The notes: generated from the letters alone by a model not told the origin. 64,000 nt of DNA from an uncultured bacterium (GCA_965112635.1 OZ218778.1:243666-307665); one strand, 5' to 3'; shown: positions 15,787-39,232, counted from the first letter of the stretch. Translations and numbers: made by a program.

Positions 15787-16589
15787 ATTTTGTGGAACGC
15801 ACTATCCTGGCTGCTCTTTCCCTGCTGAAAAATTCCATGTTCGCCGAGGATATCGCCCGCCAAAAAGGGCTCTTACAAACACTGGACCCACGGGTCAAGG
15901 CTGTTTCTTTGCTGGCCTTGATCGTGCTGGTCCTGTTCACCAAAAACTTATGGGTACTGGCTTGTATTTATGGTCTATGTCTGGTCCTGGCTATGCTATC
16001 GAGGATCCGCCTGCTGTTTTTCCTGGAGCGCACCTGGATCTTTATCCCCCTGTTTTCCCTGCTCATCGCCATACCTGCTCTTTTTAGTTTTGTATCACCG
16101 GGCCGGCCTTTGTTCTCCTGGGGGATATGGACCATCACCAGCCAGGGATTAGGCAGCGCCGTCATCTTTATCAGCCGCGTCATCACCTCGGTGTCCCTAG
16201 CCGTGCTTTTGAACCTGACCACCCGTCACCTGGAACTGCTCAAGGTCCTTAGGATATTCGGGATCCCGCAAATGTTCGTCATGATCCTGTCCATGAGCTA
16301 CCGTTATATTTTTCTTTTTGTGGAGATCATGGAAAACACCCACCGGGCCGTGCAGAGCCGCGTCGGCTCGGCCATTCATTATAAAAAAGGTCAGCACCTG
16401 GTGGCCTGGAGCATGGCTGGCCTGTGGAGCCGTTCAGTCGGCCTGCAGGAACAGGTGCACCACGCCATGCTCTCCCGCGGATTTCAAGGCGAGCCGGTCC
16501 TCCTGCACCGCATGAGCACAAGGTTCAGGGACTGGGCCTGGCTGGCCTGCGTTCTCGTCCTGGTAGTCTGTTTGTGGGGAGCGTCCTGA
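15783..16589 (+). CDS. nikQ: ECF transporter transmembrane (T) component NikQ/CbiQ
   Basis: polytopic membrane protein; ATG overlaps nikMN stop (ATGA). Confidence 0.8.
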   Translation: MNFVERTILAALSLLKNSMFAEDIARQKGLLQTLDPRVKAVSLLALIVLVLFTKNLWVLACIYGLCLVLAMLSRIRLLFFLERTWIFIPLFSLLIAIPALFSFVSPGRPLFSWGIWTITSQGLGSAVIFISRVITSVSLAVLLNLTTRHLELLKVLRIFGIPQMFVMILSMSYRYIFLFVEIMENTHRAVQSRVGSAIHYKKGQHLVAWSMAGLWSRSVGLQEQVHHAMLSRGFQGEPVLLHRMSTRFRDWAWLACVLVLVVCLWGAS

Positions 16590-17401
16590 TGAAACCTATC
16601 TTTGAGTTTCAAAAAGTCAGCTATGCTTACCTGGGTAAATTCCCGGCCCTGCGGGACATCACTCTAACTATCCCGGCTGGAAAAATGGTCACCCTGGTCG
16701 GCGCCAACGGTTCGGGCAAATCCACGCTCCTGCAGATGATGGACGGTCTTTTGTTCCCGGACAGCGGGACCATAGTTTTTGATGGCAGACAGCTGGCCAG
16801 CGCTGAACTGGAAAAACAGGACTTTTCCAAGACCTTTAGACAAAAGGTAGGACTGGTCTTCCAGAACCCCGACATCCAGCTTTTTTGTCCTACGGTCCGC
16901 GAGGATATTATTTTTGGTCCGCTCCAGCTGGGGATAGACGAAAAAATAGTGATGAACCGATTGGAAGAGTTGGCCGTAGCCCTTAAACTCACGCCTCTCC
17001 TGGACCGTGCCCCGCATCAGTTGAGCATCGGCGAAAAACGCAAGGTGGCCATAGCCTCCACCCTGGCCATAGACCCTGAGGTTTTGCTTTTGGATGAACC
17101 CACAGCCGGCCTGGACCCCATGACCACGGCTTCCATCCTGGAGATCCTGCTCACAGCCAATCAGTCAGGCAAGACCATTATTACAGCCACCCACGACCTG
17201 CATATTTTAGAGGAGATCGCGGACACAGTGTTCGTTTTCGGGCAGGATAAGACCATCGTCGCGGAAAGCACCCCCGAATCCATACTCAAGGATACGGACC
17301 TCCTGCAAGCGAACAACCTGGTGCATTTTCATCCGCACAGCCATAAAGGCAGGATGCACCAGCATCCCCACCAGCACCCGGACCACCACGAAGGAAGCTA
17401 A
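16589..17401 (+). CDS. nikO: ECF transporter ATPase NikO/CbiO with His-rich C-terminal tail
   Basis: Walker A GANGSGKST, signature LSIGEKRK, Walker B LLLDEPTAGLD; tail HFHPHSHKGRMHQHPHQHPDHHEGS; start overlaps nikQ stop. Confidence 0.85.
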   Translation: MKPIFEFQKVSYAYLGKFPALRDITLTIPAGKMVTLVGANGSGKSTLLQMMDGLLFPDSGTIVFDGRQLASAELEKQDFSKTFRQKVGLVFQNPDIQLFCPTVREDIIFGPLQLGIDEKIVMNRLEELAVALKLTPLLDRAPHQLSIGEKRKVAIASTLAIDPEVLLLDEPTAGLDPMTTASILEILLTANQSGKTIITATHDLHILEEIADTVFVFGQDKTIVAESTPESILKDTDLLQANNLVHFHPHSHKGRMHQHPHQHPDHHEGS

Positions 17402-21026: not shown

Positions 21027-24134
<3,108 letters not shown>

Positions 24135-25280
24135 TTAGCAGTTGAATATTTTCTTTTTTTGCTTCAGGTAATATTCATAGTTTTTGAGCGGGACAGTAGG
24201 CGGGCAGCGGTGGTCAAACCCGGGCACAAACCCTCCCTGCTTGACCGTAGCTTCCAGATATCTGAGCTCGTCGTCAATATCCTTGAACGAGCCCTGTATC
24301 TTGATCTTGTCCACTCCGCCCCACAGCAGGATCTGGTCCCCATATTTAGCCCGGAGCTTGACCGGGTCCGTGCCGCAGGCGCGCTCCATGGGGAACATGC
24401 AGTTGTATCCCGCCTCCAGGAAAATGGGCACCAACAGGTTGATGTCACCGTCGCAGTCCGTATAGATCACGTCGATCCCGTATTTGTGGAGCAGGCGGCT
24501 GATCTTCTTGTACTGGGGCAGGACATACTGGCGGTACATGGCCGGCGAGATCATGGGCCCGTTCTTAAAAGCCACATCCTCCCAGCCGTGGGCAAAATCG
24601 AACTGGACTTCCTTGAGAGCCGGTTCGATCAGGGCGCAGATAAAATCACCCATATACTCGATCATCTCGGCCATAAGCTCCGGCTGGTCGTAAAAAGCCA
24701 CGGTGATGTTCTCGAAACCCATCCAGTCACGGGGCTTGCCGATCATAGAGCCAATATCTATGCCCACGGGTACTTTGCGGTTGATCCAGCCCTCCACGTC
24801 CTTTTTCCAGGTCTTCGGATATCGCCCGGGGTCATGCGGGTCCAGCCTGGTCTTTTTGAACTCTTTCCAGTCCGCTGGGCCTTTGATGGGGAATTCGATG
24901 AAATGAGGGATGGAGGACATGCCCTTCTTTCTATTGATCTCGCATGTGACGCCGTTAGCGTCGATCATGATGACATGGCTTTCGCTTTTTTCCAGTATCC
25001 TTTCCTCAAAGTAGGGGTAAACATTCGTTTGTATCCCGTCCCCTTCGCAGCTTTCGATCCCGAAATACTGGTAGGCGGTCGCCTCGTCCTTGACCCATGC
25101 AGGCAGGCCCTGCTGGTGCCAGACATCCAGGGTCTCTTCCCAATACCCGAACTCAAAATTGGGGATCCTGTCCACGCTTTGATAATGCATGGTGCGCTGG
25201 AAGCGCTCCCGCGGGGACATGCTCTTATTCTTTTTGGGAGCCTGTTTTTTATCCGCTATTTTTTTAGCCGCTTTGACCAT
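24135..25280 (-). CDS. uroporphyrinogen decarboxylase (URO-D)/MtaA-family protein with Lys-rich N-terminal extension
   Basis: URO-D-like fold; ATG at 25280 has GGAGGGG RBS; alternative starts at 25364 and 25220. Confidence 0.75.
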   Translation of the reverse strand: MVKAAKKIADKKQAPKKNKSMSPRERFQRTMHYQSVDRIPNFEFGYWEETLDVWHQQGLPAWVKDEATAYQYFGIESCEGDGIQTNVYPYFEERILEKSESHVIMIDANGVTCEINRKKGMSSIPHFIEFPIKGPADWKEFKKTRLDPHDPGRYPKTWKKDVEGWINRKVPVGIDIGSMIGKPRDWMGFENITVAFYDQPELMAEMIEYMGDFICALIEPALKEVQFDFAHGWEDVAFKNGPMISPAMYRQYVLPQYKKISRLLHKYGIDVIYTDCDGDINLLVPIFLEAGYNCMFPMERACGTDPVKLRAKYGDQILLWGGVDKIKIQGSFKDIDDELRYLEATVKQGGFVPGFDHRCPPTVPLKNYEYYLKQKKKIFNC

Positions 25281-25388
25281 GGATCCCCTCCACAACGCGT
25301 AAGGAACGATGAAGTAATGATTGACCCTCAATAATAGAACAGGGGTACCCAATTGTAAATACAACGGATACCCCTGATCCTTATTAAA

Positions 25389-26207
25389 TTATGGGCGTTT
25401 TTTGGCCAGTCCCAGGAATGATACGACGACCAGCAACAGAACCGGCATAACCCCAAAACAAACCACGATGAAAGGGCCCGTGGGCATATCCAACCCGTAG
25501 CTGACGGCCATGGCCCCCAGGCTAACGATGAACCCGAAAACCCAACCGAAGATCAGCCTGGCCTTTATGGTGGTAAAAAAGTATGTGCTAATCAGCGAAG
25601 GCACGATCAGGTACGAGAAGACCTGCAGGACACCCGCGATGCTCACCGAGGAAGTGATGACGATCCCGAACAGCACATAGAACAGCAGGTCCCATCCCAT
25701 GGTCCTCTCGGTCCGGCGCCCGAAAGAAACATCCAGTAGGGGCTTGCGGAAAACATAATGGATCAACCCGACCACCGCGTAAATGACCGCCGTCTTGACC
25801 ACATCATGCCAGGTCACCCACAGGATCTGCCCGGCCAGCAGGTCTTTGATGTGTTCCAGGCCGTGGGCCAGCCTGTTGGCCACCAGCACGACCGCGGCCG
25901 AGGAAAGGGCGAAAACAACACCAATGATCGCTTCCTGCGAGAACATGCTTTCTTGTCTCCGGGCCAAGGCGAATATCCCAGCCGCCAAAAAGGTCGAACA
26001 TAAGGAGATGAAATAAAGGGTCAGAGAGTGTTCCTCGAACCCCAGCAGCAAAGCCACCGAGGCCCCCAGCGCCGCGACCTGGGCCAGGGAGAGATCCACG
26101 AAAATCACTCCCCTGGCCAGCACATGCATGCCCAAGTAGCAATGGATGCCCGCTAAAATAAGGGACATCACAAAAGGCGCTAAAAGGAACTGAATAGCTT
26201 CGTTCAT
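25389..26207 (-). CDS. metal ABC transporter permease, ABC-3 (ZnuB/MntB/TroC-like)
   Basis: 272-aa polytopic membrane protein of ABC-3 size and pattern. Confidence 0.85.
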   Translation of the reverse strand: MNEAIQFLLAPFVMSLILAGIHCYLGMHVLARGVIFVDLSLAQVAALGASVALLLGFEEHSLTLYFISLCSTFLAAGIFALARRQESMFSQEAIIGVVFALSSAAVVLVANRLAHGLEHIKDLLAGQILWVTWHDVVKTAVIYAVVGLIHYVFRKPLLDVSFGRRTERTMGWDLLFYVLFGIVITSSVSIAGVLQVFSYLIVPSLISTYFFTTIKARLIFGWVFGFIVSLGAMAVSYGLDMPTGPFIVVCFGVMPVLLLVVVSFLGLAKKRP

Positions 26208-27128
26208 TTATTTACCCTCAATGATCGAGACAAGCCGCTCCACCAGGTCGTCAGTGGTCTTGACGGCTGGCTCTCCGCCGACCTCCTCCGGAACCATGAC
26301 CACCCTCATTCCCGGCACCTCCTGGATGACCTTGTCGGCAAAGCTGGTGTCAAAGACATTCTCCACCATGATCAGCTTGATCCCCTGCTCTTTGGCCACC
26401 CGGATCACTTCCAGGATATGCTTGGCCGTGGGCGGGATACCGGGTTTTGGCTCCATGGTGATGGGATTCTCGATACCGAACCGGTCAAAGAAATAATTGA
26501 GCGTTTTGTGATAGGTGATGATCTTCTTGACGCCGGCCTTGTTGATTCTGTCCAGCCATGCCTTGGTCTTTTCCTCCAGTCGTTGCTGCATTTTTTTGGC
26601 GTTATCCATGTAAAGATCGGCGTGTTCCGGGTCCATTTCTCCCAGATGTTCGGCGACTTTGATCGCCACCTGTCCTACCCGGATGGGATCAGTCATAAAG
26701 TGGGGATTTCCAAAAGGATGGACATCTCCTTCTGCCCTGGAAACCTTGGTATTGGGAACCTCGATGGTCTCGATGAATGGCCCCACCTCCAGATAACCGG
26801 CAGTTCCCGGCATGACTTTGGGATTGCGCGCCCCCTGCAGGATGGGAGGCAGCCATCCTATCTCCAGCTCCAGCCCGATGGACACTACCAGGTCAGCGCG
26901 ATTGACCTTGACCATATAGGAAGGTTTGGCCTCTATGTAATGGGGGTCCTGGGTCCCTTTGGACAGGGACTCCACGGTCACATGATCCCCGCCGATCTCC
27001 GAGACCATGGCGGCCAGGTCCGGGATGGTTGTGATCACGTTAAGTTTAGCCTGCGCTGGTCTGGCCAAGGCACACGCCACGACCAAACCAAACATCGTTA
27101 ATGTTCGTTTCATAATGGTCCTCCTCAA
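26208..27128 (-). CDS. metal ABC transporter substrate-binding protein (ZnuA/TroA-like)
   Basis: signal peptide, cluster-9 SBP-like sequence with His/Glu/Asp metal-site region. Confidence 0.85.
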   Translation of the reverse strand: MRRTIMKRTLTMFGLVVACALARPAQAKLNVITTIPDLAAMVSEIGGDHVTVESLSKGTQDPHYIEAKPSYMVKVNRADLVVSIGLELEIGWLPPILQGARNPKVMPGTAGYLEVGPFIETIEVPNTKVSRAEGDVHPFGNPHFMTDPIRVGQVAIKVAEHLGEMDPEHADLYMDNAKKMQQRLEEKTKAWLDRINKAGVKKIITYHKTLNYFFDRFGIENPITMEPKPGIPPTAKHILEVIRVAKEQGIKLIMVENVFDTSFADKVIQEVPGMRVVMVPEEVGGEPAVKTTDDLVERLVSIIEGK

Positions 27129-27131
27129 CGT

Positions 27132-28229
27132 TTAGTAAGAATGGGCGGGATGAGCGCCGATGGTGATGTTCATTTGCACGCTGACTTTATTCTCAGGGGT
27201 ACCTAGCCCGTCCTCCAAATGGTCGTACTGTAGCCTAAAACCTGAAAACTCGGAAGGCAGCAGCGCCAGCAGCACGCTTTCTTTTTTCTGGGTCTGGACT
27301 ATTCCCTGCTGGGCCGCGCTAATATCCTGGACTCCCGCCTGGGCATCTTCAAACCTGGCCTGGATCCACCACAGTTCGGCGAACTGGTACTGCACCCAAG
27401 TGGCCATGCCACTCTGGAACTCTCCGTTGGGGTCTCCTTTAAGGTCAGCCCAGAGGCACTCCGTGTTCCAGATCATGGAGTTGTATTTGCCGCCCACCAG
27501 GGGACGCCATTTAAAGGTCAGGTCCGAACCATAAACCTGGGAGTAGGAGCCGTACTGGTTGTTTCCTTCAGTGCCGGACACACCCCAGTCCATCGTGGTC
27601 TCTTCGGTCAAGTCCCAAAGGTTCCTTAAATGGACCAAAGACGCCGGGCTGTTGCGGTCAGGACTATCGTAGAGGATGGAGTTGGTCCCCTGAAATTCCT
27701 GCACCGTGAGCTCCATGAACCAGTCCGTGGGCATCAAAAAGGCGCCCGAAACGCCCACTCCGCTCAAGCTGTCTCCCACCAGCTCCTGGTCGATCAGGGG
27801 CGCGTCAATGAAGGGAAAGGCATGGGTATGCATGGTATTGTGGCGATCCAGGGCGGTCTTAAATTTCCCCAGTTTAAAGGTCATGCCTGAAAGATCGATG
27901 GTTTCCACAAAGACCTCTTCGGGGTCGATCCCAAAATCTGAAGTCGGGGAGTCCTGACTGATGGAAAGCAGGGCATTGGCGTGGAAATAAGGGTCCACGT
28001 CGGAAAAGAACTGCATCTCCGCTTCCTGCAAATAGAACCCGTTTAACTCATTGGGAAACAATGTGGAAGTATCGTTTCCCCTGTTACTGTTCTGATAAAG
28101 GGTTAAAAAATTAACTGATGTATCGGGATTGGCGTATTTGGTGTTGGCATTGACCTGGGCCGTCAGGGGCAAGGCACACAGGAGGGCCGCTGCCATGAAT
28201 ACACCTATGCCCGAATATAATTTAGACAT
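27132..28229 (-). CDS. putative outer-membrane beta-barrel protein/porin
   Basis: signal peptide MSKLYSGIGVFMAAALLCALPLTAQ, alternating amphipathic pattern, C-terminal aromatic; AAGGAG RBS. Confidence 0.5.
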   Translation of the reverse strand: MSKLYSGIGVFMAAALLCALPLTAQVNANTKYANPDTSVNFLTLYQNSNRGNDTSTLFPNELNGFYLQEAEMQFFSDVDPYFHANALLSISQDSPTSDFGIDPEEVFVETIDLSGMTFKLGKFKTALDRHNTMHTHAFPFIDAPLIDQELVGDSLSGVGVSGAFLMPTDWFMELTVQEFQGTNSILYDSPDRNSPASLVHLRNLWDLTEETTMDWGVSGTEGNNQYGSYSQVYGSDLTFKWRPLVGGKYNSMIWNTECLWADLKGDPNGEFQSGMATWVQYQFAELWWIQARFEDAQAGVQDISAAQQGIVQTQKKESVLLALLPSEFSGFRLQYDHLEDGLGTPENKVSVQMNITIGAHPAHSY

Positions 28230-28256
28230 AGTTTTCTCCTTAATTTTTTAGTTGAC

Positions 28257-28280
28257 GAACCTGTAGCGTTTAACAGGTTC
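28257..28280. promoter_or_regulatory. 8-bp inverted repeat GAACCTGT-N8-ACAGGTTC just upstream of the OMP/SBP/permease operon RBS
   Basis: read directly. Confidence 0.3.
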
Positions 28281-28296
28281 TACGGAACCTAACGAA

Positions 28297-28563
28297 TTAG
28301 GAGACGGCAGGCGGAGCCTTGTTGCTGATCAGTTCCTTGGCTGGAGTGGGTAAAAAATCAGGGATGGGATTGGGTAAGAATGAAATGAATTCGAACTGGG
28401 GAGTGATGACCACGGCCTCTACCGTGCTGACGAATACGCATTGGCCCCAGTTGCACGCTAAACAATGGTCATCGGGTTCATCCAAGGGATGGTTATGGAG
28501 GAATGGGATAGCTGAAAACCACAAACACAGAACGATAAATAATATTTTTTTGGTCAGTGTCAT
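28297..28563 (-). CDS. small secreted/membrane protein with HNH..DxxDH and CxxC motif (possible metal-binding)
   Basis: 88-aa ORF from ATG 28563; signal-like MTLTKKILFIVLCLWFSAIPFL then HNHPLDEPDDHCLACNW. Confidence 0.4.
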   Translation of the reverse strand: MTLTKKILFIVLCLWFSAIPFLHNHPLDEPDDHCLACNWGQCVFVSTVEAVVITPQFEFISFLPNPIPDFLPTPAKELISNKAPPAVS

Positions 28564-28620
28564 GGCTATAAGGCTAACCCTTCTCACCCAATAAAGTCAA
28601 GAGAGTAGAAGTTTGTATCA

Positions 28621-29244
28621 TTACTCGTAGCAACCACAGTCTTTGCTGCTAGCGTTCTCCCAGCCTTCCCGGCCGATGAGCACGGCAATGCCCAGGCTGG
28701 TGACCGAGTCAAACCAGGCCAGCCCGGTCGCGGTAAAGAGAAACGACCCGGCCAAAAGCAATCCGGACAACCACATGCAGGATAAGGTGCAAAAAGCATC
28801 GGCCTCCAGGGCCGGACTGCGCAATCCCTGGGCCGCCTGCTTTTTATAATGATAGAGGACAAACATCACTCCCAGGGAGATGACGGCAATGATCATGCCG
28901 GGCAAACCGGTCTTGGGCCTGAACTTATCGCTCCACTCCAGGACCACTCCGGCCGCCAGCAGGACGGACAATAATAAAAGGAACCAGCCGATGATGCGGT
29001 GGGCCAGGTGTTCGGCCCCGGCTGTCCGTGTTTTTTTGGATTCCCTGCGGCTGAAACACCATAGCACCACGACCGCCGAGGCGGTCTCGATAAGGCTGTC
29101 GAACCCGAACCCCAAAAGGGATAGGGACTCCGCGGCCAGGCCGAACCACAGGCTCACCAAAAACTCGGCCAGGTTGTAAAAGACCGAAGCCCAGGCCAAA
29201 ACAAGGGCCAGCTTTACCCACTGGCGCCGTGGTACTTTTTTCAT
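28621..29244 (-). CDS. cation-diffusion-facilitator-like membrane protein, TM domain only
   Basis: ~207-aa polytopic protein with CDF-like TM motif SLSLLGFGFDSLIE and C-terminal CGC; AAGGAG RBS before ATG 29244. Confidence 0.5.
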   Translation of the reverse strand: MKKVPRRQWVKLALVLAWASVFYNLAEFLVSLWFGLAAESLSLLGFGFDSLIETASAVVVLWCFSRRESKKTRTAGAEHLAHRIIGWFLLLLSVLLAAGVVLEWSDKFRPKTGLPGMIIAVISLGVMFVLYHYKKQAAQGLRSPALEADAFCTLSCMWLSGLLLAGSFLFTATGLAWFDSVTSLGIAVLIGREGWENASSKDCGCYE

Positions 29245-29255
29245 ACACACTCCTT

Positions 29256-29299
29256 AAAAAAGAAAAGCAGCCTTCGCTTAGATAAGAAGACTGCTTTTC
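29256..29299 (-). terminator. candidate rho-independent terminator after the small ORF (9-bp stem, 20-nt loop, T6 on minus strand)
   Basis: GAAAAGCAG...CTGCTTTTC inverted repeat followed on the minus strand by TTTTTT. Confidence 0.4.
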
Positions 29300-29316
29300 T
29301 CAGAATCCCTAATAGA

Positions 29317-29388
29317 CTAACAGCATTTCCCCTTGTGAACCTTACCACAACCAGGGCACTTCTTTGCTTTTTTTGTCTTTTTCGCCAT
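29317..29388 (-). CDS. unannotated 23-aa Lys/Cys-rich small ORF (MAKKTKKAKKCPGCGKVHKGKCC)
   Basis: ATG 7 nt after AGGAGGG, below the ORF-track size cutoff, followed by the terminator hairpin; 50 nt downstream of the URO-D gene. Confidence 0.3.
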   Translation of the reverse strand: MAKKTKKAKKCPGCGKVHKGKCC

Positions 29389-29438
29389 ATGCCCTCCTTT
29401 CTTTACAGCATTATACTCCAAAAACATTTCAAGTAAAT

Positions 29439-30485
29439 CTACCCTGCTTTTCTAGCCTCGTCATACATGGCCACGATGTTCTCCACCGGCGTGATGGACT
29501 GGATATTATGGCAGGGCGATAGGATATACCCCCCTCCCTCACCCAAAATCCTGATATTATCCCGGACCTCCTGCCTGACTTCGGCAACCGTTCCAAAGGG
29601 CAGGGTCTGCTGGTTGTCCATGGCTCCGTGGAAGCACAGCTTGGCGCCGAAGGTTTTCTTGAGCACCTGCCGGTCCATCCCTGCGCAGCGCCACTGGATG
29701 GGGTTCAAAATATCCACCCCGATCTCGACCAGGTCCGGGATGATGGCTAGGATGGCCCCGTCGCTGTGGGTCATGACGTAAGCCCCGTGCTTGTGCACCA
29801 ACTCCATCATTTTTTTCATCCTCGGTTTTAAAAATTTCCTGAAAATAGCCGGGCTGTACAAAAGGGATTCCTGGGTCCCCAGGTCTTCGGCGATATAGGC
29901 AATATCAATGTTCCCCTTGGCAGCAATGAGGGTCTTTTCGTTCAGTTCGTAATGGATCTGGAAGATCCGCTCCAGGGCCGCTTCCACCATCTCCGGATTC
30001 TCGTAAAAGTCGGACATGGCCTGTTCCATGCCCCGCATATAGCTATAAAGCCACATCGGCTCAAAGTAACTTCCCTGGATGGGTCTGCCCTTGTATTCCA
30101 GGCATTTGTCCAGGACATTTTCAAAGGTCCACCATTTTGGATCCGGCCAGGGATAATCTTCCATCTCCTTGACGCTGGTGATCTTGGCCAGGGGGTTGCG
30201 GGCTATCTCATCATAAGTTCCGGCGCCGTTGGCATAGTTGACCTTCCGCCACTCCATGCCCCAGATATCCGCCTTGCCCCGTTCCTTGGCATGGGGGTCG
30301 TGCAAATCCCCGCCCACCCCCACAACGCGGTCTATGTTCAGTTTGGCCCAAAGTTCATCCGGGTTCTTGCATTTCAATTCTTGGAGAAGCTTATCGGTGA
30401 TCTCCGGTGTTCCCCAGTAATCCGTCGGGATATGGTCCACGCCTTTCTTGGCTATGGTCGCTCTCCAGCGTTCCTTAGAAGTCAT
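29439..30485 (-). CDS. uroporphyrinogen decarboxylase (URO-D)/MtaA-family protein
   Basis: 348-aa ORF with URO-D-like fold. Confidence 0.8.
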   Translation of the reverse strand: MTSKERWRATIAKKGVDHIPTDYWGTPEITDKLLQELKCKNPDELWAKLNIDRVVGVGGDLHDPHAKERGKADIWGMEWRKVNYANGAGTYDEIARNPLAKITSVKEMEDYPWPDPKWWTFENVLDKCLEYKGRPIQGSYFEPMWLYSYMRGMEQAMSDFYENPEMVEAALERIFQIHYELNEKTLIAAKGNIDIAYIAEDLGTQESLLYSPAIFRKFLKPRMKKMMELVHKHGAYVMTHSDGAILAIIPDLVEIGVDILNPIQWRCAGMDRQVLKKTFGAKLCFHGAMDNQQTLPFGTVAEVRQEVRDNIRILGEGGGYILSPCHNIQSITPVENIVAMYDEARKAG

Positions 30486-30600
30486 TATTACCCTCCATTG
30501 TTCGAAGTGTCCTGTAAATTGGTTAATTCTTGCGCTTTAACGGCGTAAAGTCAAGCCAACGGCCTGTTCTGCAAAACACCTAATTCTAGCTTGACTTTTT

Positions 30601-30620
30601 AACTATACGCCCGTATAGTT
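30601..30620. promoter_or_regulatory. candidate TetR operator palindrome AACTATAC-GCCC-GTATAGTT
   Basis: perfect 8-bp arms 30 bp upstream of the TetR start. Confidence 0.4.
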
Positions 30621-30650
30621 ATACAGAGGTATAGATATAAAGGAGGCACA

Positions 30651-31292
30651 ATGCCTAGACCTTCGAGTGATTCTGATAAAAAACTTATCCAGGCAGCTTT
30701 GGAACTGCTGGACCAGACTGGTTTTAGCGGCCTAAAACTAAGGCAGGTGGCCGCTAAAGCCAAGGTCAACCTGGGCATGTTCCATTACCACTTCAAAACT
30801 AAGGAAGATTTTGAGGCTAAAGTTCTGGAAGCGGTCTACGAGAGTATGTTCAGCAAGCTCAGCCTTGAATCAACCGGCCCTGAACCTGGCCTGGAGCGTC
30901 TGAGGAAGGCCCTGTTCACCTTTGGCCAGTTCACCCGGCAGCACCGCCGCATAGTCCTGGGCCTTTTGCACGATGCCATGAACGGCCACAAGGGCATCCT
31001 GCAGTTCGCTCAAAAGAATTTTCCCCGCCATATCAAAGTCCTAGTTGACCTCATCCAGGAATGCCAACAACAGGGCTCTTTAGAAAAGTCGGACCCCATG
31101 GACGCCCTGATCTTTTTAATGAGTGCTATCAACCTGGCCAATGCCATTTCCGGCATACTGGAAAAAACTGAGGAACATAAACTCTTCTCCTTCAAGCTCA
31201 AGCTCATCCAGTCCCGCTTGATCTCCGACCAAGCCATCCAGCGCCGGGTGGACCTGGCTCTCAAAGCCCTGTCCCCGGCCAAAGGAGCCTGA
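30651..31292 (+). CDS. TetR/AcrR-family transcriptional regulator
   Basis: N-terminal HTH (FSGLKLRQVAAKAKVNLGMFHYHF), ~210 aa; AGGAGG RBS. Confidence 0.85.
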   Translation: MPRPSSDSDKKLIQAALELLDQTGFSGLKLRQVAAKAKVNLGMFHYHFKTKEDFEAKVLEAVYESMFSKLSLESTGPEPGLERLRKALFTFGQFTRQHRRIVLGLLHDAMNGHKGILQFAQKNFPRHIKVLVDLIQECQQQGSLEKSDPMDALIFLMSAINLANAISGILEKTEEHKLFSFKLKLIQSRLISDQAIQRRVDLALKALSPAKGA

Positions 31293-31293
31293 T

Positions 31294-32661
31294 ATGAAAA
31301 AATTGTTATCTACCGTTCTATCTTTAGGATGCCTGCTGGCCGCACAGGCGTCCTCTGGCGCCCCCACCCTCAAACTATCCCTGGCCGAGATGGTCAAGCA
31401 GGCCATGCTCAACTCCAACCAGCTCACGGCAGCGGAACTGGACTGGCACGCGGCCCAGCGCCGCTCGGACCTGGCCGGTTCGGCCCTACTCCCCTATGTG
31501 GGCGCACAAGGTTCTTGGAGCCGCGTCTCCATCATCCCTTCCCTCAGCCTGTTCCCCAACCAGCCGCCAATGCAATTCGGGGACTATCAGAATTATAACT
31601 ATGGCCTGGCGGCCAGCTGGACGGTGTGGGACTGGCTGGGGACTTTTAACAGCGCCGAAAGCAACCGAGAAGCGGCCTGGGCCAAGGAACAGCAATGGCG
31701 GACCATGGTCCTGCAGACCGTGCTCACAGCCAGGCTGGCTTATTTCCAGGTCCAGGCCAATCTGGAACAGGTACGGTTGGCCTCGGACTCCCTCAAGCTC
31801 GCCCAGTCCCAGTACAGGGATGTGGATCTCCGTTACCACGCGGGCACGGCCAGTAAGATCGACGAACTCTCCGCTCACCAAGAGGTTCTGACCTGGCAAA
31901 GGCAGTTCCGCCAGGCCCAGGCTGACCTGGCCGGCTCCCTGCGCACCCTCTATAGCCTTACCGGCCTGGACCCCCAGGCTGACCTGAGCCTGCCCTACGA
32001 TAGCCGCCTGGCCGGTAATATGCCTGATAATATAGGGAATCCAACGGTTTTTGTGGCCCTGGATAACATCCAGGATTCGGCCAAAATCTTGGAGCCGGGC
32101 ACCCACGATCGTCCGGACAATACCCTTCCCCAGGTCCAGATCTACCAGGCGCTTTCTGATTCATTCAAAAAACTGGGGTGGAGCGCGGATGCGGCCTTCC
32201 TGCCCCGGTTCCAGGTGCAGGCCACAGCCGGTTACCAGTATCCCAACGGCCCGGTCCTAGAGACCATTCAGCAAAACACCGTGGCGGTGTCGGCTTCCAT
32301 GCCTCTTTGGGATTGGGGCAGGACCATCAACCAATCCGCGGAAGCCAGAGACCAGTCCCTTACCTATGAAAAACAGCGCGACCAGTCCTTGACCGACCTG
32401 GGCCGGAACTGGGACATGGCCCAGGACCAGCTTCAGGGTCTGCTGGACCAGCAAAAGCTCAACAACCAGTACGTATCCGAGGCCGAGCAGTTGGCTAAAC
32501 TCGTTTACCAGTCCTACCAGTCCGGCCGTTCCAGTTTCTTGGATGTCCAGTCCGCCAACTTGCGGGAAATGGAAGCTAAGGTCCAGTCCGTCCGGACCGA
32601 CATACAGGTCTTGATACAGATGGCGACCCTATCTGCTCTATCCAAAGGAGGTTCCTTATGA
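31294..32661 (+). CDS. TolC-family outer-membrane efflux protein
   Basis: signal peptide, 455 aa, outer-membrane-factor-like repeat structure. Confidence 0.8.
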   Translation: MKKLLSTVLSLGCLLAAQASSGAPTLKLSLAEMVKQAMLNSNQLTAAELDWHAAQRRSDLAGSALLPYVGAQGSWSRVSIIPSLSLFPNQPPMQFGDYQNYNYGLAASWTVWDWLGTFNSAESNREAAWAKEQQWRTMVLQTVLTARLAYFQVQANLEQVRLASDSLKLAQSQYRDVDLRYHAGTASKIDELSAHQEVLTWQRQFRQAQADLAGSLRTLYSLTGLDPQADLSLPYDSRLAGNMPDNIGNPTVFVALDNIQDSAKILEPGTHDRPDNTLPQVQIYQALSDSFKKLGWSADAAFLPRFQVQATAGYQYPNGPVLETIQQNTVAVSASMPLWDWGRTINQSAEARDQSLTYEKQRDQSLTDLGRNWDMAQDQLQGLLDQQKLNNQYVSEAEQLAKLVYQSYQSGRSSFLDVQSANLREMEAKVQSVRTDIQVLIQMATLSALSKGGSL

Positions 32662-33386
32662 AGAAAAGAATTCCGATCATCCTGGCGGTCATTTTGCTGG
32701 TGATCGCGGCCATCATCGTCTGGCAGGTTTGGCTCAAAGGGCCGTTCCGCTACGCCGGCACGGTCGAGGCCACCGAGGTGGACATCCCTTCCCGCCTGGG
32801 TACGGTCATCACTTCTTATGAGGTCAAGGAAGGCGACAAGGTCGCCAAAAGCCAGCTTATGGTGGTCTTGTCCGGGGACGAGGTCAAAGTGGACAGCGAC
32901 GAGGCCGCAGACGACTACCACCGAGCCATTTCTCTTTACCAGAGCGGTTCCATGGCCAAGGAGGCTTTTAACCATATTAAATCCCGCTGGGAGACGAGCT
33001 CGCTGCGGGTCTCCTGGTGCAATGTCAAAGCGCCTCTGGCCGCCACGGTCCTGACCAAATACCACGAACCCGGTGAATGGGTCAACCCGGGTACCAAGCT
33101 TCTGACCCTGGGAGACCTGTCCGAGGTCTGGGCCTACGTGTATGTGCCCGAGACCAAGCTCGCTTCCCTCAAATTGAACGGGGAGATCCGGGGCTGGCTG
33201 GCCGACACGCACCAGTACTTCCAGGGCAGGATCAGCAAGATCAACGACGAAGCAGAATTTACCCCAAAAAATGTGCAAACCCAGGCTGAACGTACCCGTC
33301 TGGTCTATGGGGTCAAATGCGTTTTCCCCAATCCCGACGAAATCCTCAAGCCCGGCATGACCATTGAGGTAGAGTTTCCCAAATAA
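32658..33386 (+). CDS. HlyD-family periplasmic adaptor (membrane fusion protein)
   Basis: N-terminal TM then adaptor-like domain; overlaps TolC stop. Confidence 0.8.
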   Translation: MKKRIPIILAVILLVIAAIIVWQVWLKGPFRYAGTVEATEVDIPSRLGTVITSYEVKEGDKVAKSQLMVVLSGDEVKVDSDEAADDYHRAISLYQSGSMAKEAFNHIKSRWETSSLRVSWCNVKAPLAATVLTKYHEPGEWVNPGTKLLTLGDLSEVWAYVYVPETKLASLKLNGEIRGWLADTHQYFQGRISKINDEAEFTPKNVQTQAERTRLVYGVKCVFPNPDEILKPGMTIEVEFPK

Positions 33387-33448
33387 CGGTTGGCCCTATT
33401 GTTCCTGGCCGGTTTTCCAAGCCTATAGGTCGGAAATCAGGTGGAAAA

Positions 33449-34204
33449 ATGACGGAAAAAACCCATGTTTCCTTTGAAATCAAAGGGGTTTATAAAAAAA
33501 TGGGCCTCAACCAGGCCCTGGACGGAATCACCACGCTTTTTGACGCCTCCACCCTGCACGGCCTTATCGGCCCGGATGGGGCCGGTAAAACCACTCTCCT
33601 GCGCTGCCTCATCGGCCTGCTGAAACCCAATAGCGGGGAGATCCTTTACTTCCAGGAGCAAAGCCAGGTCCCCTTTTCTAACGTCAGGGACGGCCTGGCC
33701 TACATGCCCCAGCAGCAAAGCCTGTACCCGGACCTTTCCATTGACGAACATTTGGAATTTTTCCGAGACCTCTACCAGATCCCGCCGGAAATTTACTCAC
33801 AGCGTCGCGATGAACTCCTCCAGTTGGCTCGTTTGGCCCAGTTCAAGGACCGTCCGGCCGGACAGCTCTCCGGCGGCATGTATAAAAAGCTCGGTCTCAT
33901 GTGCGCCCTGCTCCGCTCCCCCTCGGCCGTACTGCTGGACGAGCCCACCAACGGCGTGGACCCCATCAGCCGCCGGGAGTTTTGGGATATGCTCTACCGT
34001 CTGGTGGGACAGGGTGTCCTGGTCCTCATTTCCACGGCCTACATGGACGAGGCCGAACGCTGCGGCAAGGTCCATATCCTGTCACATGGGAAACTTTTGA
34101 CCAGCGGTGAGCCTGAAAATGTCCTTACCGCGGAAAAGGTCCGCAACTTCGAGGAGCTTTTTATGAAATATGACCGGCTTGAGACAGCTTTAAAGGAGAG
34201 ATGA
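33449..34204 (+). CDS. ABC transporter ATP-binding protein
   Basis: Walker A GPDGAGKTT, signature LSGGMYKK, Walker B LLDEPT. Confidence 0.85.
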   Translation: MTEKTHVSFEIKGVYKKMGLNQALDGITTLFDASTLHGLIGPDGAGKTTLLRCLIGLLKPNSGEILYFQEQSQVPFSNVRDGLAYMPQQQSLYPDLSIDEHLEFFRDLYQIPPEIYSQRRDELLQLARLAQFKDRPAGQLSGGMYKKLGLMCALLRSPSAVLLDEPTNGVDPISRREFWDMLYRLVGQGVLVLISTAYMDEAERCGKVHILSHGKLLTSGEPENVLTAEKVRNFEELFMKYDRLETALKER

Positions 34205-35140
34205 ACATGTCTAGCGTCTTGAACACTCCCAGCGTTGAGGTCAACGGCCTTACGGTCAAATTCGGTAAATTCACGGCTGTGGACAACATCTCCTTCAGGG
34301 TCGCCCAGGGAGAGATTTTTGGGTTTTTGGGGGCTAACGGCGCCGGCAAGACCACGACCATCCGTGTCTTGTGCGGACTCCTCATGCCCACCAGCGGTAG
34401 CGTGTCCGTGGCCGGCCTGGAGGTCAAGCAAAGCCTGCAGGCAATCAAACAAAAGGTCGGCTACATGTCCCAAAAATTTACCCTGTACCAGGACATGACC
34501 GTGTGGAGAAAACCTGGCCTTTACCGCGGCCCTGCGCAAAATTCCCCAGGAAGTCTTTCAACAGCGTAAAAAAGAACTGCTGGAGTTCATTGGCTTCCAT
34601 GAGCCGGAAAAAACTTTTGTCAAAGACCTGGCCGGGGGCCTCAAACAGGAAGTGTCCCTGACCGCGGCCATGCTGCACGACCCTGAGATCGTGTTTTTGG
34701 ACGAACCCACAGCCGGGGTGACCCCGGCCAGCCGCCAGCGCTTTTGGGACCTCATCCGCCAACTCTCCGCCAAGGGCAAAACCGTTTTTGTGACCACCCA
34801 TTACATGGATGAAGCTGAAAACTGCGGCCGTATCGCTCTCATGCGGGCCGGCCAGATCATAGCCCTGGATACCCCGGAAAACCTTAAAAACACGCGTTTT
34901 CCTTATCCTCTTTATGAGATCACCCCCAAACCAGGGGCAGCCCCGGACTGGCTTGACCGTCTGCAAAAGGACAAGCGCCTGGATTTGTCACCTTACGGTC
35001 TGCGTTACCATTGCGCAGTCAAAGATAAAGCAGCTTGGCCGGAAATTTCCACATTTTTAAGCGAGCAAGCCGCTTCCCATCCTATCAAACCGTCCCTGGA
35101 GGATGTTTTTATCCAGCTTGTGGAAGGAGTGGACCGATGA
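34201..35140 (+). pseudogene. second ABC transporter ATP-binding protein, frame broken near 34507-34513
   Basis: Walker A GANGAGKTT in first ORF; Walker B VFLDEPT in ORF 34652-35140; removing one base at tgg-a-gaaaac restores TVWENLAFTAAL. Confidence 0.7.
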
Positions 35141-36258
35141 ACTCCTTTTTTGTCTGGACCAGAGCCTTGTCCATCGCCCGCAAGGAGACCCGGCATGTGC
35201 TGCGCGACCCCTTTACGCTGGGCCTGGCCTTGGGGTTACCCCTGGCCATGGTGGTGTTCTTCGGGCTGGCCATAGATTTTAACGCCAAGGACTTGAAACT
35301 CACCATCTATGACCGGGACCAGAGCCGGGCTTCTCGCCAAGTGGCGGATGCGTTCCAAAGTTCGGGCTATTTCCGGGTCAAGTACGGCAACCTCAACGTC
35401 AATCCCACCAATGACCTGGACGCGGAAAGGGCCAAGGCGGTTTTGATCATTGAACCGGAGTTCCAGCAAAACCTGGGAGCCGGCCGTCCTACCCGGGCCC
35501 AGCTGCTGGTGGACGGAGCGGACAATTCTACGGTCGGCATGATCCTGGGTTATGTGGCCGGTATCCAGCAGTCCGCTGCCGAAAAGTTCACCGGCCAAAA
35601 GGTCGTCCAGCCCATTACCCTCAAAACCCGTTTCCTTTTCAACCCCGAGCTCAACACCCAGTGGTTCATCGTCCCCGGCCTGGCCGCCACGGTCATGGCC
35701 ATCCTGGCCATTCTTTTGACCGCCCTGACCGTGGCCCGCGAATGGGAGAACGGCTCTATGGAACTGCTGCTGTCCACACCCGTTAAACCACTGGAGATCA
35801 TCGCCGGTAAAATTGCCCCCTACCTTGTCATCGGGCTTTTAGCCCAGGCCACGGTCTATGTGCTGGCCAGGGTGGGCTTTGGGGTGCCTTTTGAGGGCAG
35901 CCACATCCTGCTTTTGTTTGGCAGCCTCCTGTTCCTGGCCGCCTATTTTGCCCAGGGCATCCTGATTTCCGTGACCGCCCGCCAGCAGCAGATCGCTATG
36001 CAATTAGCCATGCTCACGGGTATGCTGCCGACCATGCTCTTGTCCGGGTTTGTCTTTCCCGTGGAAAGCATGCCTCCCTTCTTCCAATACCTCTCCATGA
36101 TCATGCCCGCCCGCTGGTATATGGAGATCCTGCGGAGCCTGTTCTTGCGAGGTGCTGATTTGGTCCAGCTGGCTATCCCTTTTGGAGCCCTGGCCTTGAT
36201 CAGCGTAATCATGGTCACGGCCGCCACCAAACGCTTCAAAACGGATGTGGAACCATGA
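35137..36258 (+). CDS. ABC-2 family transporter permease
   Basis: polytopic membrane protein; ATG 35137 overlaps upstream stop. Confidence 0.8.
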   Translation: MNSFFVWTRALSIARKETRHVLRDPFTLGLALGLPLAMVVFFGLAIDFNAKDLKLTIYDRDQSRASRQVADAFQSSGYFRVKYGNLNVNPTNDLDAERAKAVLIIEPEFQQNLGAGRPTRAQLLVDGADNSTVGMILGYVAGIQQSAAEKFTGQKVVQPITLKTRFLFNPELNTQWFIVPGLAATVMAILAILLTALTVAREWENGSMELLLSTPVKPLEIIAGKIAPYLVIGLLAQATVYVLARVGFGVPFEGSHILLLFGSLLFLAAYFAQGILISVTARQQQIAMQLAMLTGMLPTMLLSGFVFPVESMPPFFQYLSMIMPARWYMEILRSLFLRGADLVQLAIPFGALALISVIMVTAATKRFKTDVEP

Positions 36259-37367
36259 ACCAAACTGTCGTTGGATTCATCAAAAAAGAGCTTATCCAGG
36301 CCTTGCGTGACAACAGGATGCGGGTTCTTATTTTTATCGCGCCCCTGCTGCAGACCTGTATCTTTGGTTTGGCCATCCAAACCGAGATTAAAAATATCCA
36401 GCTTTCCGTCATGGCCTCACCCAGCGACCGCCTGATGAGCCGTATCGCGCAAAGAGCTTTTGCTTCCGGTTGGTTCATTCCGGCCGCCAGCCATGAGACC
36501 GACCCTTTTCGACAGGTCCAGTCCGGCCAGGCTGACGCCGTCCTCGTGGCCCCTAAGGAGGGCTTGGATGCTGCCGTGGAAAGGGGCCGGGGCCAGGTGC
36601 AATACCTGGTCAACGCCAGCAACGTCCTCAAAGCCAGCGCCATGGAGAACTATATGCAGGCCGCCATCCAGGAAGTCGTCCAGGACAGCGCTTCCAGCCT
36701 GCCCAGCGGGGCTGTACCCGCCATACCCCTCAATCTGGATATCCGCATCCTCTATAATCCCGAGCTGATATCCTCCGTTTTCATGGTGCCCAATGTCATT
36801 GTGTTCATCCTCTGCCTGGTTTCCATCGTCCTGACCGCCATGGCCCTGGCCCGGGAAAAGGAGATCGGCACCTTTGAGACCCTGCTGGCCTCGCCCGCCA
36901 AACCCTGGGAGATCATGATGGGTAAAACTATTCCCTTTATCATTATCGGGTTCATTGATGTGCCGCTGGTCATGTGTTTTGGGGTGTTCTTTTTCAGCGT
37001 GCCAGTGAGAGGCTCTATCCTTCTCTTGGGCCTATCCTCCGCCGTGTTCCTGTGCACCACGGTGTCGGTCGGTATCATGATCTCGACCCTGGCCAAAAAC
37101 CAACAGCAGGCTATGATGGGCAGTTTTATGTTCCTGTTCCCTGCCTTTATGCTTTCCGGCATCTTTTTCCCTGTGGAGAATATGCCGTCCTATTTAAGGT
37201 TCGTGGCCTACCTCAACCCCCTGAAATATTTCGTGGCTATTCTGCGCAACATTATGCTCCGGGGTGGGGACCTTTCGTTGGTGGCTTATAATCTAGGCGT
37301 GCTTATTTTAATGGGAACTCTTGCCGTGCTTTTCAGCTACAGGCGTTTTCATCAGACCTTGGACTAG
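36255..37367 (+). CDS. ABC-2 family transporter permease (second copy)
   Basis: 370-aa polytopic membrane protein; overlaps upstream stop. Confidence 0.8.
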   Translation: MNQTVVGFIKKELIQALRDNRMRVLIFIAPLLQTCIFGLAIQTEIKNIQLSVMASPSDRLMSRIAQRAFASGWFIPAASHETDPFRQVQSGQADAVLVAPKEGLDAAVERGRGQVQYLVNASNVLKASAMENYMQAAIQEVVQDSASSLPSGAVPAIPLNLDIRILYNPELISSVFMVPNVIVFILCLVSIVLTAMALAREKEIGTFETLLASPAKPWEIMMGKTIPFIIIGFIDVPLVMCFGVFFFSVPVRGSILLLGLSSAVFLCTTVSVGIMISTLAKNQQQAMMGSFMFLFPAFMLSGIFFPVENMPSYLRFVAYLNPLKYFVAILRNIMLRGGDLSLVAYNLGVLILMGTLAVLFSYRRFHQTLD

Positions 37368-37370
37368 ACA

Positions 37371-38393
37371 TCAGCGTGGGGGGCGCGCTTCCAGTTTTTT
37401 TTCCAGCCGCGTTTGCAGGATCACCCGCCGGCCTCCGCTAATCTTGAGGATCCGCTCCACCGTCATAGAGCGCGTTAGCGCAACATAGATCATCTGGTCG
37501 TCACGCAATCCCCGAAAGTAATGCTCAAAGTCGTCCGCCGCAGCGTCGTTGAGCTGCACACCCCGGAGGTTCTCCATTTTTCGCCAGCAGGGAATGTGCT
37601 GCGTGTGATAGCCGCAGAGGTGGATCGTACCGCCCTCGGGATAAACCCTTAGCACCTGCGCGTCCAAAGGCGCGACATGCTCCGCGTAGGCCTGGGGCCC
37701 TACCAGCTGGGTCGAGCAGCCGCAGATATGGCCGAACCCGTCCGGTGCGTAACGGTGCGAAGAGGCATAAAATCGGACTCGTTTTTGAGGAAAACGCTTA
37801 CGGATCAGCCGGTGCAGGGCCTCTATGGTGTCCGCGATCACGGCCAGGCCGGCCATATCCGCGGTTTCTACCAGGGAAAGCGCCATAAGCGCACGCTCGC
37901 CAAAGAGGTTTAGGGCAATATTGAGCGGTGAGGCAAATACAGGGGTCGTAAGAGAGATTCCCTTTGGCAGGCTGGACAGAGCCCGGCTCATAGCCTCCAG
38001 CGACCAGAGCACGAGTTCCGCGTGCTCTACGTCAACAGGTTTCAAACTCCCCAGTTCAGTTGGAAGCTGGTCAGCCCAAAAGTTCCCGTCCCGCTCGCTG
38101 ACATGGGCTCCAAAAAGCGCGTCCACAAAATGCACTCCCAATGGCCAGAACTCGGCTACCAGCGGACTGAACGTGATTGTGTCAGCTCCCAGGCTGGCGT
38201 TTTCCTCAAAGGAACGAATCATCGCCTTGAGCCACTCTGCAAAGGACTCCTCATCCGGCCGCAAATATTCCCTTTGAGGTATGTTGGCGATTGAAAGCAC
38301 TGACTCGCCCGGATGCCCGATATACAAATCCCTAAACGCCTTCACATGGGCTTCCTGGGCAATCTTAATCGCAGGATCACTAAGTTTCACCAT
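37371..38393 (-). CDS. hypothetical enzyme, possibly a third URO-D/MtaA-family paralog
   Basis: 340-aa ORF with Cys/His-containing C-terminal half (GHICGCSTQL, HLCGYHTQHIPC); family call is tentative. Confidence 0.45.
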   Translation of the reverse strand: MVKLSDPAIKIAQEAHVKAFRDLYIGHPGESVLSIANIPQREYLRPDEESFAEWLKAMIRSFEENASLGADTITFSPLVAEFWPLGVHFVDALFGAHVSERDGNFWADQLPTELGSLKPVDVEHAELVLWSLEAMSRALSSLPKGISLTTPVFASPLNIALNLFGERALMALSLVETADMAGLAVIADTIEALHRLIRKRFPQKRVRFYASSHRYAPDGFGHICGCSTQLVGPQAYAEHVAPLDAQVLRVYPEGGTIHLCGYHTQHIPCWRKMENLRGVQLNDAAADDFEHYFRGLRDDQMIYVALTRSMTVERILKISGGRRVILQTRLEKKLEARPPR

Positions 38394-38438: not shown

Positions 38439-38978
38439 TTAATCAAAGACGACATCCTCATTTTGCACATACCCGCGGTTCTGGACTTTAGCTTTGGTCC
38501 TGTTTCTTTTGACTTTTACTTTTTCCGTCACAGGCCCTGTCCCCTCAGGAACAGCCTGCTTTTCCCTGACCGTATTGGCCTTGAGGAATTTTTTGACGGC
38601 TCCGATGACCTCATCCTCATAACGCGGATGGCTCTCCAGGACCCACTCCGTGAACTGCCCCAGCTCTTCTGGGGACACTTTGAGCCACAGGCTGTTCTTG
38701 TCCAGCCAGGCCAGGAGCACGGCCAGGCTGACCTGCTTCTGGGCCTGTTTGCCGAACGGCGGCTCTTTGAGGAATCGGTAGAACAGGACCGCGCCTTTGT
38801 CCAAAGTGCCGGGATAGGGATTTTGGTCAATGAAATTCTCGAACGGCGCAGCCAGGTCTTTTTCCAGGATATTGGCTGGCCTGGGATCAGCTACCTCTGC
38901 CAGTCCCTTTTTGACCATCTCGCTGACCAGGTACTCCACTTCTGCCAGACCAAGCCGGGTCATCAGCGTCCGCTCCAT
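38439..38978 (-). CDS. hypothetical protein with basic C-terminal tail
   Basis: 179-aa ORF overlapping the upstream HTH gene by 16 nt; no recognised motifs. Confidence 0.4.
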   Translation of the reverse strand: MERTLMTRLGLAEVEYLVSEMVKKGLAEVADPRPANILEKDLAAPFENFIDQNPYPGTLDKGAVLFYRFLKEPPFGKQAQKQVSLAVLLAWLDKNSLWLKVSPEELGQFTEWVLESHPRYEDEVIGAVKKFLKANTVREKQAVPEGTGPVTEKVKVKRNRTKAKVQNRGYVQNEDVVFD

Positions 38979-39232
38979 TTCGACAATATGCCGCCAAAAT
39001 CACTGGATATCCGCTCCAGACAAGTATTGAGGCGCTGAATATCCTTTTCGCCCAATGTTTTGCCCAAAATACCGTCTATATGGTCGCTGGGAATCACATA
39101 ATTCCGGCCGATTTTCTCGCCTGTTATCAGGCCTTTTTTGACCTTTTGGAATACCGCTATCCTGCTGACTCCCAATAAATCAGCAACTTGTTTAATCGTT
39201 AAATATCGTTGTTTTTCAATCACTTTAACCAA
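38963..39232 (-). CDS. small helix-turn-helix DNA-binding protein (excisionase/MerR-like HTH)
   Basis: 89-aa ORF with HTH LTIKQVADLLGVSRIAVFQKVKKG. Confidence 0.6.
   Translation of the reverse strand: MVKVIEKQRYLTIKQVADLLGVSRIAVFQKVKKGLITGEKIGRNYVIPSDHIDGILGKTLGEKDIQRLNTCLERISSDFGGILSKWSGR

Follow-up and report, generated by a model that had tools for sequence, protein, structure and literature searches.

Three genes of the UroD/MtaA superfamily

Three genes of the UroD/MtaA superfamily are located in a 64,000-nucleotide stretch of DNA from an uncultured, glycan-degrading bacterium (GCA_965112635.1 OZ218778.1:243666-307665), the whole of which is referred to here as the window. All three lie on the minus strand, within 14 kb of one another, and encode P1 (381 aa, 24135-25280), P2 (348 aa, 29439-30485), and P3 (340 aa, 37371-38393). 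They represent three distinct uncharacterized clades of the superfamily, and corrinoid-dependent methyl transfer is tentatively favored as their function. The original prediction, made from the sequence alone, had named two or three URO-D/MtaA paralogs; two of the proteins proved to be members of the Pfam URO-D family (PF01208), and the third is a remote relative at the level of the fold, closest to MtaA.

P1 and P2 were recognized as open reading frames (ORFs) matching PF01208 with 47 bits (E 2.3e-12) and 83.4 bits (E 2e-23), respectively, against a threshold of 23.9 bits, which bears out their reading as URO-D-like proteins. Homology between the two families extends along their entire length (hhalign probability 99.6%, E 1.6e-23, between family alignments). 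Membership in the (beta/alpha)8-barrel fold superfamily is given by structural models for P2 and P3 and by this similarity to the P2 family for P1. The P2 model (pLDDT 94.1) has MtaA as its best Foldseek match (E 1.2e-13, TM 0.67), followed by HemE/UROD and MetE, the ranking also obtained for P3, and MtaA 4ay7 is the top match of P2 among PDB sequences. No signal peptide was seen by eye in P1, P2, or P3, and none of the three matches PF01717 (Meth_synt_2).

The P2 family yielded more than 6800 matches and the P1 family more than 1100, with hosts in Planctomycetota, Terriglobia, Armatimonadota, Latescibacterota, Bacillota, and other groups, and nearly all of these homologs are annotated as "uroporphyrinogen decarboxylase (family protein)" or are unnamed. 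The genome itself holds at least one more P2 paralog, P0130, which shares an identity of 57% with P2. P1 starts with the ATG at 25280, with GGAGG 8 nt before it and a promoter-like site further ahead (25359-25331), and its Lys-rich N-terminus is thus part of the ORF. The N-terminal extension that had been predicted is therefore real, but its first 20 residues are not conserved in the homologs.

Relationship to HemE and MtaA

The three proteins were compared with the TIGR01464 hemE equivalog model (cut-off 302.95 bits) and the TIGR01463 MtaA/CmuA model (cut-off 235.4 bits), and all fell far below. The HemE model gave 16.6 bits for P2 and no match for P1 and P3, while the MtaA/CmuA model gave 59 bits for P2, 27.6 bits for P1, and none for P3. 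HemE carries a substrate-binding motif near its N-terminus, PxWxMRQAGR, and this arginine-rich motif is absent from the N-termini of the three proteins (e.g., MTSKERWRATIAKKGVDHIPTDYW). A genuine HemE function in heme or siroheme-type tetrapyrrole synthesis could be argued from the (beta/alpha)8 fold and the structural similarity to HemE, from the Pfam family name of P1 and P2, and from the C-terminal conserved His, which aligns with P2 H326 and P1 H357. With the equivalog model failing so widely, the motif missing, and no heme genes or heme context among the window ORFs that were scanned, the possibility of bona fide HemE, which had been raised as a challenge to the original prediction, is hardly credible.

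The zinc ligands of MtaA, an H-x-C on strand 6 and a C on strand 8, are not reproduced in P1, P2, or P3. Inspection of the zinc-ligand positions revealed a different set of invariant residues in each family, namely, H-S-D...C-H in P2, D-C-D...D-H in P1, and, in P3, H-L-C-G together with C-G-C on the preceding strand. In the P2 family, H240-S-D242-G and C325-H326-N327 are invariant; in a profile-to-PDB alignment, the former falls on the H-I-C-G of MtaA and C325-H326 on the G-C of its P-G-C-G. D275-C-D277-G and D356-H357 are invariant across the P1 family, at the columns of the MtaA zinc ligands. Such invariance within each family is as expected of an active site, and because the family-specific residues occupy the MtaA zinc positions, each clade appears to have a conserved active or metal site of its own.

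P3 represents a family without a curated model

P3 has no match in Pfam, NCBIfam, or the PDB sequences, either as a single sequence or as a 52-sequence profile, and it stays below the PF01208 threshold. A lone alpha-mannosidase match of the profile among the PDB sequences (E 0.17) was judged spurious. The AlphaFold model of P3 is confident (pLDDT 96.4, pTM 0.93), and its Foldseek search against the PDB returned MtaA (4ay8/4ay7) first (E 5e-10, TM 0.62), then about 15 HemE/UROD entries, and then MetE. P3 is counted in the UroD/MtaA superfamily because Foldseek of this model gives MtaA first. The original prediction had included P3 as a possible URO-D protein, with an unrelated family as the outcome that would speak against it; the inclusion holds at the level of the fold, where the best matches are MtaA and then HemE, but fails at the level of the Pfam family. 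A P3 homolog in locus L084 reaches 22.3 bits with PF01208, slightly under the threshold, a precomputed PF01208 match exists for one of 120 P3 homologs, and the P3 and P2 families are related by hhalign with a probability of only 13.6%.

Within the P3 family, H258-L-C260-G261, C226, D283, N158, and R214 are invariant, and C224 is kept in at least 90% of members. In a local hhalign alignment, H-L-C-G falls on the H-I-C-G of MtaA. C224-G-C226 lies where the preceding strand (strand 5) ends, a position at which P1 and P2 have an invariant E-D, and P3 lacks the C-terminal Cys ligand. P3 is an unmodeled variant family with, as far as the alignments indicate, a rearranged Cys/His site. The family is small: the 90% clusters gave 185 matches, and, out of 1.84 billion representatives, 80 clusters match at E<=1e-30. 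It occurs in 168 stretches of GTDB species-representative genomes. Its hosts are Armatimonadota, Planctomycetota, Sumerlaeota, Poribacteria, Hydrogenedentota, Victivallales, Chloroflexota, and gut Clostridia; the closest relatives come from metagenome-assembled genomes (MAGs) of Armatimonadota and Planctomycetota, with an identity in GTDB of at most 59%. A tandem pair of P3-family genes was observed in a Chloroflexi MAG (L030, 2258-5077).

Gene neighborhoods of the homologs

The homologous loci comprised 80 from GTDB for P3, 80 from metagenomes for P2, and seven distinct loci for P1, about 170 in total, and their ORFs were clustered. All-vs-all ORF clustering of the 80 P3 and 80 P2 loci yielded no fixed partner, none occurring in more than about 10% of the loci; the largest "partner" clusters consisted of antisense shadow ORFs and were dismissed. 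Glycan-related genes are recurrent, including those of glycoside hydrolase (GH) families GH2, GH36, GH38, GH43, GH78, GH95, and GH140, sulfatases, and BNR and CBM9 proteins, as are GFO_IDH_MocA oxidoreductases, sugar ATP-binding cassette (ABC) transporter components, and AraC or LacI regulators. GH2 recurs in the loci of P1, P2, and P3 homologs. GH2, GH36, and GH42 are galactosidase families, and GH95 and GH140 act on pectin rhamnogalacturonan II (RG-II), which bears methyl sugars. About 15% of the P2 and P3 loci contain another UroD-fold gene no more than 6-8 kb away, as would be expected if the systems hold two methyltransferases or several substrates.

The window had been described as a carbohydrate and metal-transport neighborhood. 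The first half of this description extends to the homologs, at which glycan genes recur, but the metal transporters are specific to the window: ZnuA, ABC-3, CDF, and TetR-efflux genes occur only in same-species assemblies and not by the homologs, and the metal-transport link was rejected. Cation-handling genes do recur beside URO-D paralogs in L172 (10001-12074), L174 (8001-11011), and L177 (7653-9125), an adjacency that may be coincidence.

The original prediction had also noted that no corrinoid protein or MtaB/C-type partner is encoded nearby. This is so for the window ORFs that were scanned, but a minority of orthologous loci carry genes for a corrinoid protein, RACo, or DUF1638 in adjacent positions. 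In the P2 family, RACo is encoded immediately downstream in L103, L108, L116, and L131, the P2 homologs of which belong to one sub-clade and are 68-95% identical. In L160, a sulfatase gene, the P2 homolog, a B12-binding corrinoid protein gene immediately downstream of it, and a GH95 gene follow one another. L165 contains a corrinoid protein gene, one further gene, a GH140 apiosidase gene, the P2 homolog, another gene, and a GH2 gene, the corrinoid protein gene being three genes off. The P2 orthologs located by corrinoid protein or RACo genes keep the H-x-D-G and C-H-N motifs of P2.

The P3 family is represented by two operon-like clusters in two Bacillota-type MAGs, directly after glycosidase genes. 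L084 (5722-15490) encodes GH36, the P3 homolog, DUF1638, a URO-D protein fused to thioredoxin, a corrinoid protein, RACo, AraC, and CobW, and L085 (6871-11939) encodes GH43/CBM35, the P3 homolog, a corrinoid protein, a URO-D protein fused to thioredoxin, and CobW. For P1, L176 (4393-14651) contains genes for a corrinoid protein, RACo, DUF1638, the P1 homolog, and then a second URO-D protein, together with MetW, MetX, O-acetylhomoserine sulfhydrylase, and a stand-alone PF02574 homocysteine S-methyltransferase. A pterin-binding domain was not seen in L176, and the locus could encode a methionine synthase in split form, supplied with methyl groups via a UroD-family enzyme. All corrinoid protein and RACo matches in about 1.6 Mb of flanking sequence are at most three genes from the focal gene.

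Genomic surroundings in the window

The window is part of a MAG, in which it falls on ERZ25039471 contig_13894 (387 kb) and, in the NCBI version, on a contig of 2.88 Mb. P1, P2, and P3 belong to separate transcription units with unrelated neighbors, and there is no sign of one system in the window. Read 5' to 3' on the minus strand, genes for a 365-aa outer-membrane-like protein, a ZnuA-like binding protein, and an ABC-3 permease come first, followed by the first of three groups, which encodes P1, a GH2 LacZ, and a hybrid histidine kinase. P1 ends 12 nt upstream of the gene for the LacZ-type GH2 beta-galactosidase (21027-24122, minus; Pfam Glyco_hydro_2 domains, E 4e-101), and the two genes are probably transcribed together; this lacZ is the carbohydrate link in the window. 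The ZnuA-like/ABC-3 permease operon (25389-28229, minus) is led by the 365-aa protein, which has no Pfam match, and has no adjoining ABC ATPase gene.

The second group consists of P2, a 23-aa small ORF, a terminator hairpin, and the gene of a CDF exporter. The candidate small ORF (29317-29388, minus), which encodes the Lys/Cys-rich MAKKTKKAKKCPGCGKVHKGKCC, has a GGAGG ribosome-binding site and a promoter-like site (29437-29410). The Cys-rich ORF predicted after P2 is accordingly present, but it is absent after 76 P2 homologs and from all other loci examined. It is a lineage-specific candidate that could encode a tiny metal-binding peptide. The unit of P2 and the small ORF is closed, upstream of the CDF transporter gene, by an intrinsic-terminator-like hairpin identified by RNA folding (29256-29301, minus), which has a 16-bp stem followed by U6 (-22.5 kcal/mol, z = -4.87; none of 200 shuffles equally stable). 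On the other side of P2, a palindrome, AACTATACG-N2-CGTATAGTT (30595-30626), overlaps a promoter-like site between the divergent TetR gene and P2 and is probably the TetR operator, and a perfect 10-nt inverted repeat (30547-30556/30589-30598) overlaps both divergent -35-like boxes.

The divergent efflux operon, encoding TetR, OEP, HlyD, and ABC proteins, sits between P2 and P3. Its second ABC ATPase gene (34201-35140, plus) is split into ORFs of 122 aa and 162 aa and is a single 310-aa gene in an independent same-species assembly (L002); the split is probably a frameshift from an assembly error, not a pseudogene. In the third group, the two genes directly upstream of P3 overlap by ATGA (38439-39223, minus) and encode an HTH protein of 86 aa (Pfam HTH_17) and a protein of 174 aa without a Pfam match. 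This pair looks like a toxin-antitoxin or regulatory pair and was not found near P3 homologs.

The remaining window encodes GH130, a glycosyltransferase, HypD, an HypE-like (AIR synthase-related) protein, a TonB-dependent receptor with ExbB, a CbiM-type transporter, a DEAD helicase, an FGGY kinase, and many sensor kinases. The HypD and HypE-like genes are near the CbiM-type Ni/Co uptake system (6430-8670 and 14767-17401), and the organism is probably an anaerobe with NiFe hydrogenase. No family, including the cobalamin riboswitch, was matched in the Rfam scan of the window.

Proposed function and alternative explanations

The MT1 enzymes of the UroD superfamily function together with an MT2 enzyme, a corrinoid protein, and an ATP-dependent activase, and zinc is present in some MT1 enzymes and not in others; the substrates of many clades are not known (PMC13222342). 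The reactivation of B12 has been tied to RamA-like proteins and DUF1638 (PMC5764234, PMC12478193). Because the context data agree with this published background, corrinoid-dependent methyl transfer is the best-supported function for all three clades, and P1, P2, and P3 may, tentatively, be uncharacterized corrinoid-dependent methyltransferases with partners encoded elsewhere. They would be cytoplasmic TIM-barrel enzymes. By analogy with characterized systems, a corrinoid protein carrying B12 would bind above the central cavity of the barrel, and the substrate would be activated by a metal or acid-base site, different in each family, where strands 5, 6, and 8 end. The genes for the corrinoid protein and its ATP-dependent activase (RACo, DUF1638) would lie in another part of the genome. 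The favored substrates are, speculatively, methylated sugars or other small methylated compounds released from glycans because homologs recur beside glycosidases, sulfatases, and sugar regulators.

Several known systems are comparable. MtaA/MtbA/MtsA (4ay7/4ay8) and the MtaA-like proteins (Mlps) of type 1 mlp clusters (PMC10418091) share the fold, and the MtaA group is the best structural match of P2 and P3, with the active site at the same strand ends. It differs in sequence (identity 10-19%), in the zinc triad, which is replaced in P1 and P2 and rearranged in P3, and in context, since the window holds no corrinoid protein or activase and the setting is glycan catabolism, not methanogenesis or methyl-sulfur metabolism. 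By description, P1 and P2 are functionally most analogous to MT1 of the O-demethylase and dehalogenase systems (MtvB, OdmB, VdmB, MtoB, and CdmB), a substrate:corrinoid methyltransferase with separate corrinoid protein, MT2, and activase (PMC13222342). The MT1 enzymes act on methoxylated aromatics or halomethanes in acetogens and are encoded in compact operons of MT1, corrinoid protein, and MT2, whereas P1, P2, and P3 are solitary genes with glycosidase neighbors. No MT1 structure was among the top PDB Foldseek matches of the P2 and P3 models.

In a more specific and doubtful version of the proposal, P3 would be a new UroD-fold family with a zinc site assembled from a strand-5 C-G-C and a strand-6 H-x-C and, together with P1/P2-type clades, would take part in a widespread B12-dependent removal of sugar methyl ethers during glycan breakdown. 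Candidate sugars would be 2-O-methyl-fucose, 2-O-methyl-xylose, and methyl-galactoses, the route would resemble that of the corrinoid-dependent aromatic O-demethylases, and its hosts would include Planctomycetota, Armatimonadota, Sumerlaeota, Clostridia, and others. The sole sugar demethylase known to us is an oxygen-dependent P450 acting on 6-O-methyl-galactose.

A number of observations weigh against corrinoid-dependent methyl transfer. In the 64 kb window, Pfam scans of gene-like ORFs of at least 200 aa and home-made hidden Markov models run over every ORF of at least 60 aa detected no corrinoid protein (PF02310/PF02607), RACo/RamA, DUF1638, MtaB/C, or heme genes, as the original prediction had stated for corrinoid, MtaB/C-type, and heme genes nearby. 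Corrinoid genes are found at few loci, namely, six of 80 for P2, two of 80 for P3, and one of eight contexts for P1 (the seven loci and the window), and the independent lineages are few because the four P2-RACo loci form one sub-clade. The immediate neighbors of P3 homologs are very diverse (127 Pfam families among 146 neighbors), and P1 and P2 both depart from the canonical H-x-C...C zinc triad. The idea of O-methyl-sugar substrates is drawn from gene neighborhood only. In the full-text literature, in accordance with the earlier remark that URO-D proteins outside heme or methyltransferase operons are poorly characterized, no paper on the three families and no biochemical data were found, nor anything relevant linking the URO-D family to polysaccharide utilization loci or methylated-sugar demethylation.

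A function other than methyl transfer is a serious rival. The proteins may be cofactor-independent or metal-dependent sugar enzymes that reuse the UroD barrel without a corrinoid partner, such as decarboxylases of sugar acids, uronic acids included, isomerases, or epimerases. The lack of any corrinoid gene at more than 90% of the homologous loci is in keeping with such enzymes, as are the cofactor-less decarboxylase activity of HemE, which has the same fold, and the frequency with which GFO_IDH_MocA proteins, AP_endonuc_2 sugar-isomerase-like barrels, sugar transporters, and glycosidases occur as neighbors; the P1 site, all carboxylate and His (D-x-D...D-H), is typical of hard-metal sugar enzymes. 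However, the adjacency of corrinoid protein, RACo, and DUF1638 genes to all three families would be left unexplained, the catalytic N-terminal motif of HemE is absent, and we know of no characterized member of the UroD superfamily that acts on sugars. On balance, this explanation is rather unlikely.

Thiols are activated by His/Cys zinc sites in MtaA and MetE, and the core methionine synthases and MetE share such a site, which is His-Cys-Glu-Cys in MesA-D (PF01717). At least one of the three proteins, especially P3, might by this likeness be a methyl-corrinoid:thiol methyltransferase for methionine synthesis, like the core synthases or split MetH, instead of a catabolic demethylase. The core synthases MesA-D and the C-terminal domain of MetE are of similar size (about 340 aa) and belong to the same fold superfamily, and corrinoid proteins are the probable methyl donors of the core synthases (PMC7857596). 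Catalytic domains of MetE are likewise among the matches of the P3 model, although weaker ones than MtaA or HemE, and P3 has no PF01717 match, no C-terminal Cys ligand, and extra cysteines on strand 5. Split MetH requires a RamA-like protein and DUF1638 (PMC5764234, PMC12478193), and DUF1638 and RACo accompany P1 and P3 homologs as well (L176 and L084). The P1 homolog of L176, with its corrinoid protein, RACo, and DUF1638, lies beside the genes for MetW, MetX, O-acetylhomoserine sulfhydrylase, and the PF02574 protein; however, methionine genes occur at this one locus only and most contexts are glycan-related, and a role in methionine synthesis is improbable. Still less probable is a tie to metal homeostasis, in which the proteins would be metal-regulated or zinc-sparing paralogs connected with the adjoining metal transporters. 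P1 comes after the znuA/znuB-like operon, the Cys-rich small ORF and the CDF exporter come after P2, an Na_Ca_ex transporter gene follows the same-genome paralog P0130, P1 homologs are located near a CDF gene (L174) and after CutA1 (L177), and CobW GTPases are encoded in L084 and L085. On the other hand, none of the about 170 homologous loci has the window's ZnuA, ABC-3, or CDF genes next to the homolog, the family-specific metal-site residues are invariant whatever the context, and the terminator parts the unit of P2 and the small ORF from the CDF gene.

Implications

Thousands of entries named "uroporphyrinogen decarboxylase family protein" exist without known function in bacteria that are neither methanogenic nor acetogenic. 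For these, corrinoid methyl transfer linked to glycan catabolism offers a concrete, testable hypothesis, with particular operons suited to examining it (L084/L085, L160, L165, and L176), and P3 adds a third, previously unmodeled family of the same fold. If the idea of O-methyl-sugar substrates is wrong, the families would still need re-annotation away from "uroporphyrinogen decarboxylase". If it is true, it would fill a gap in the anaerobic breakdown of methylated sugars, as in pectin RG-II, algal galactans, and hemicellulose, and a demand for B12 would be added to glycan-degrading lineages.

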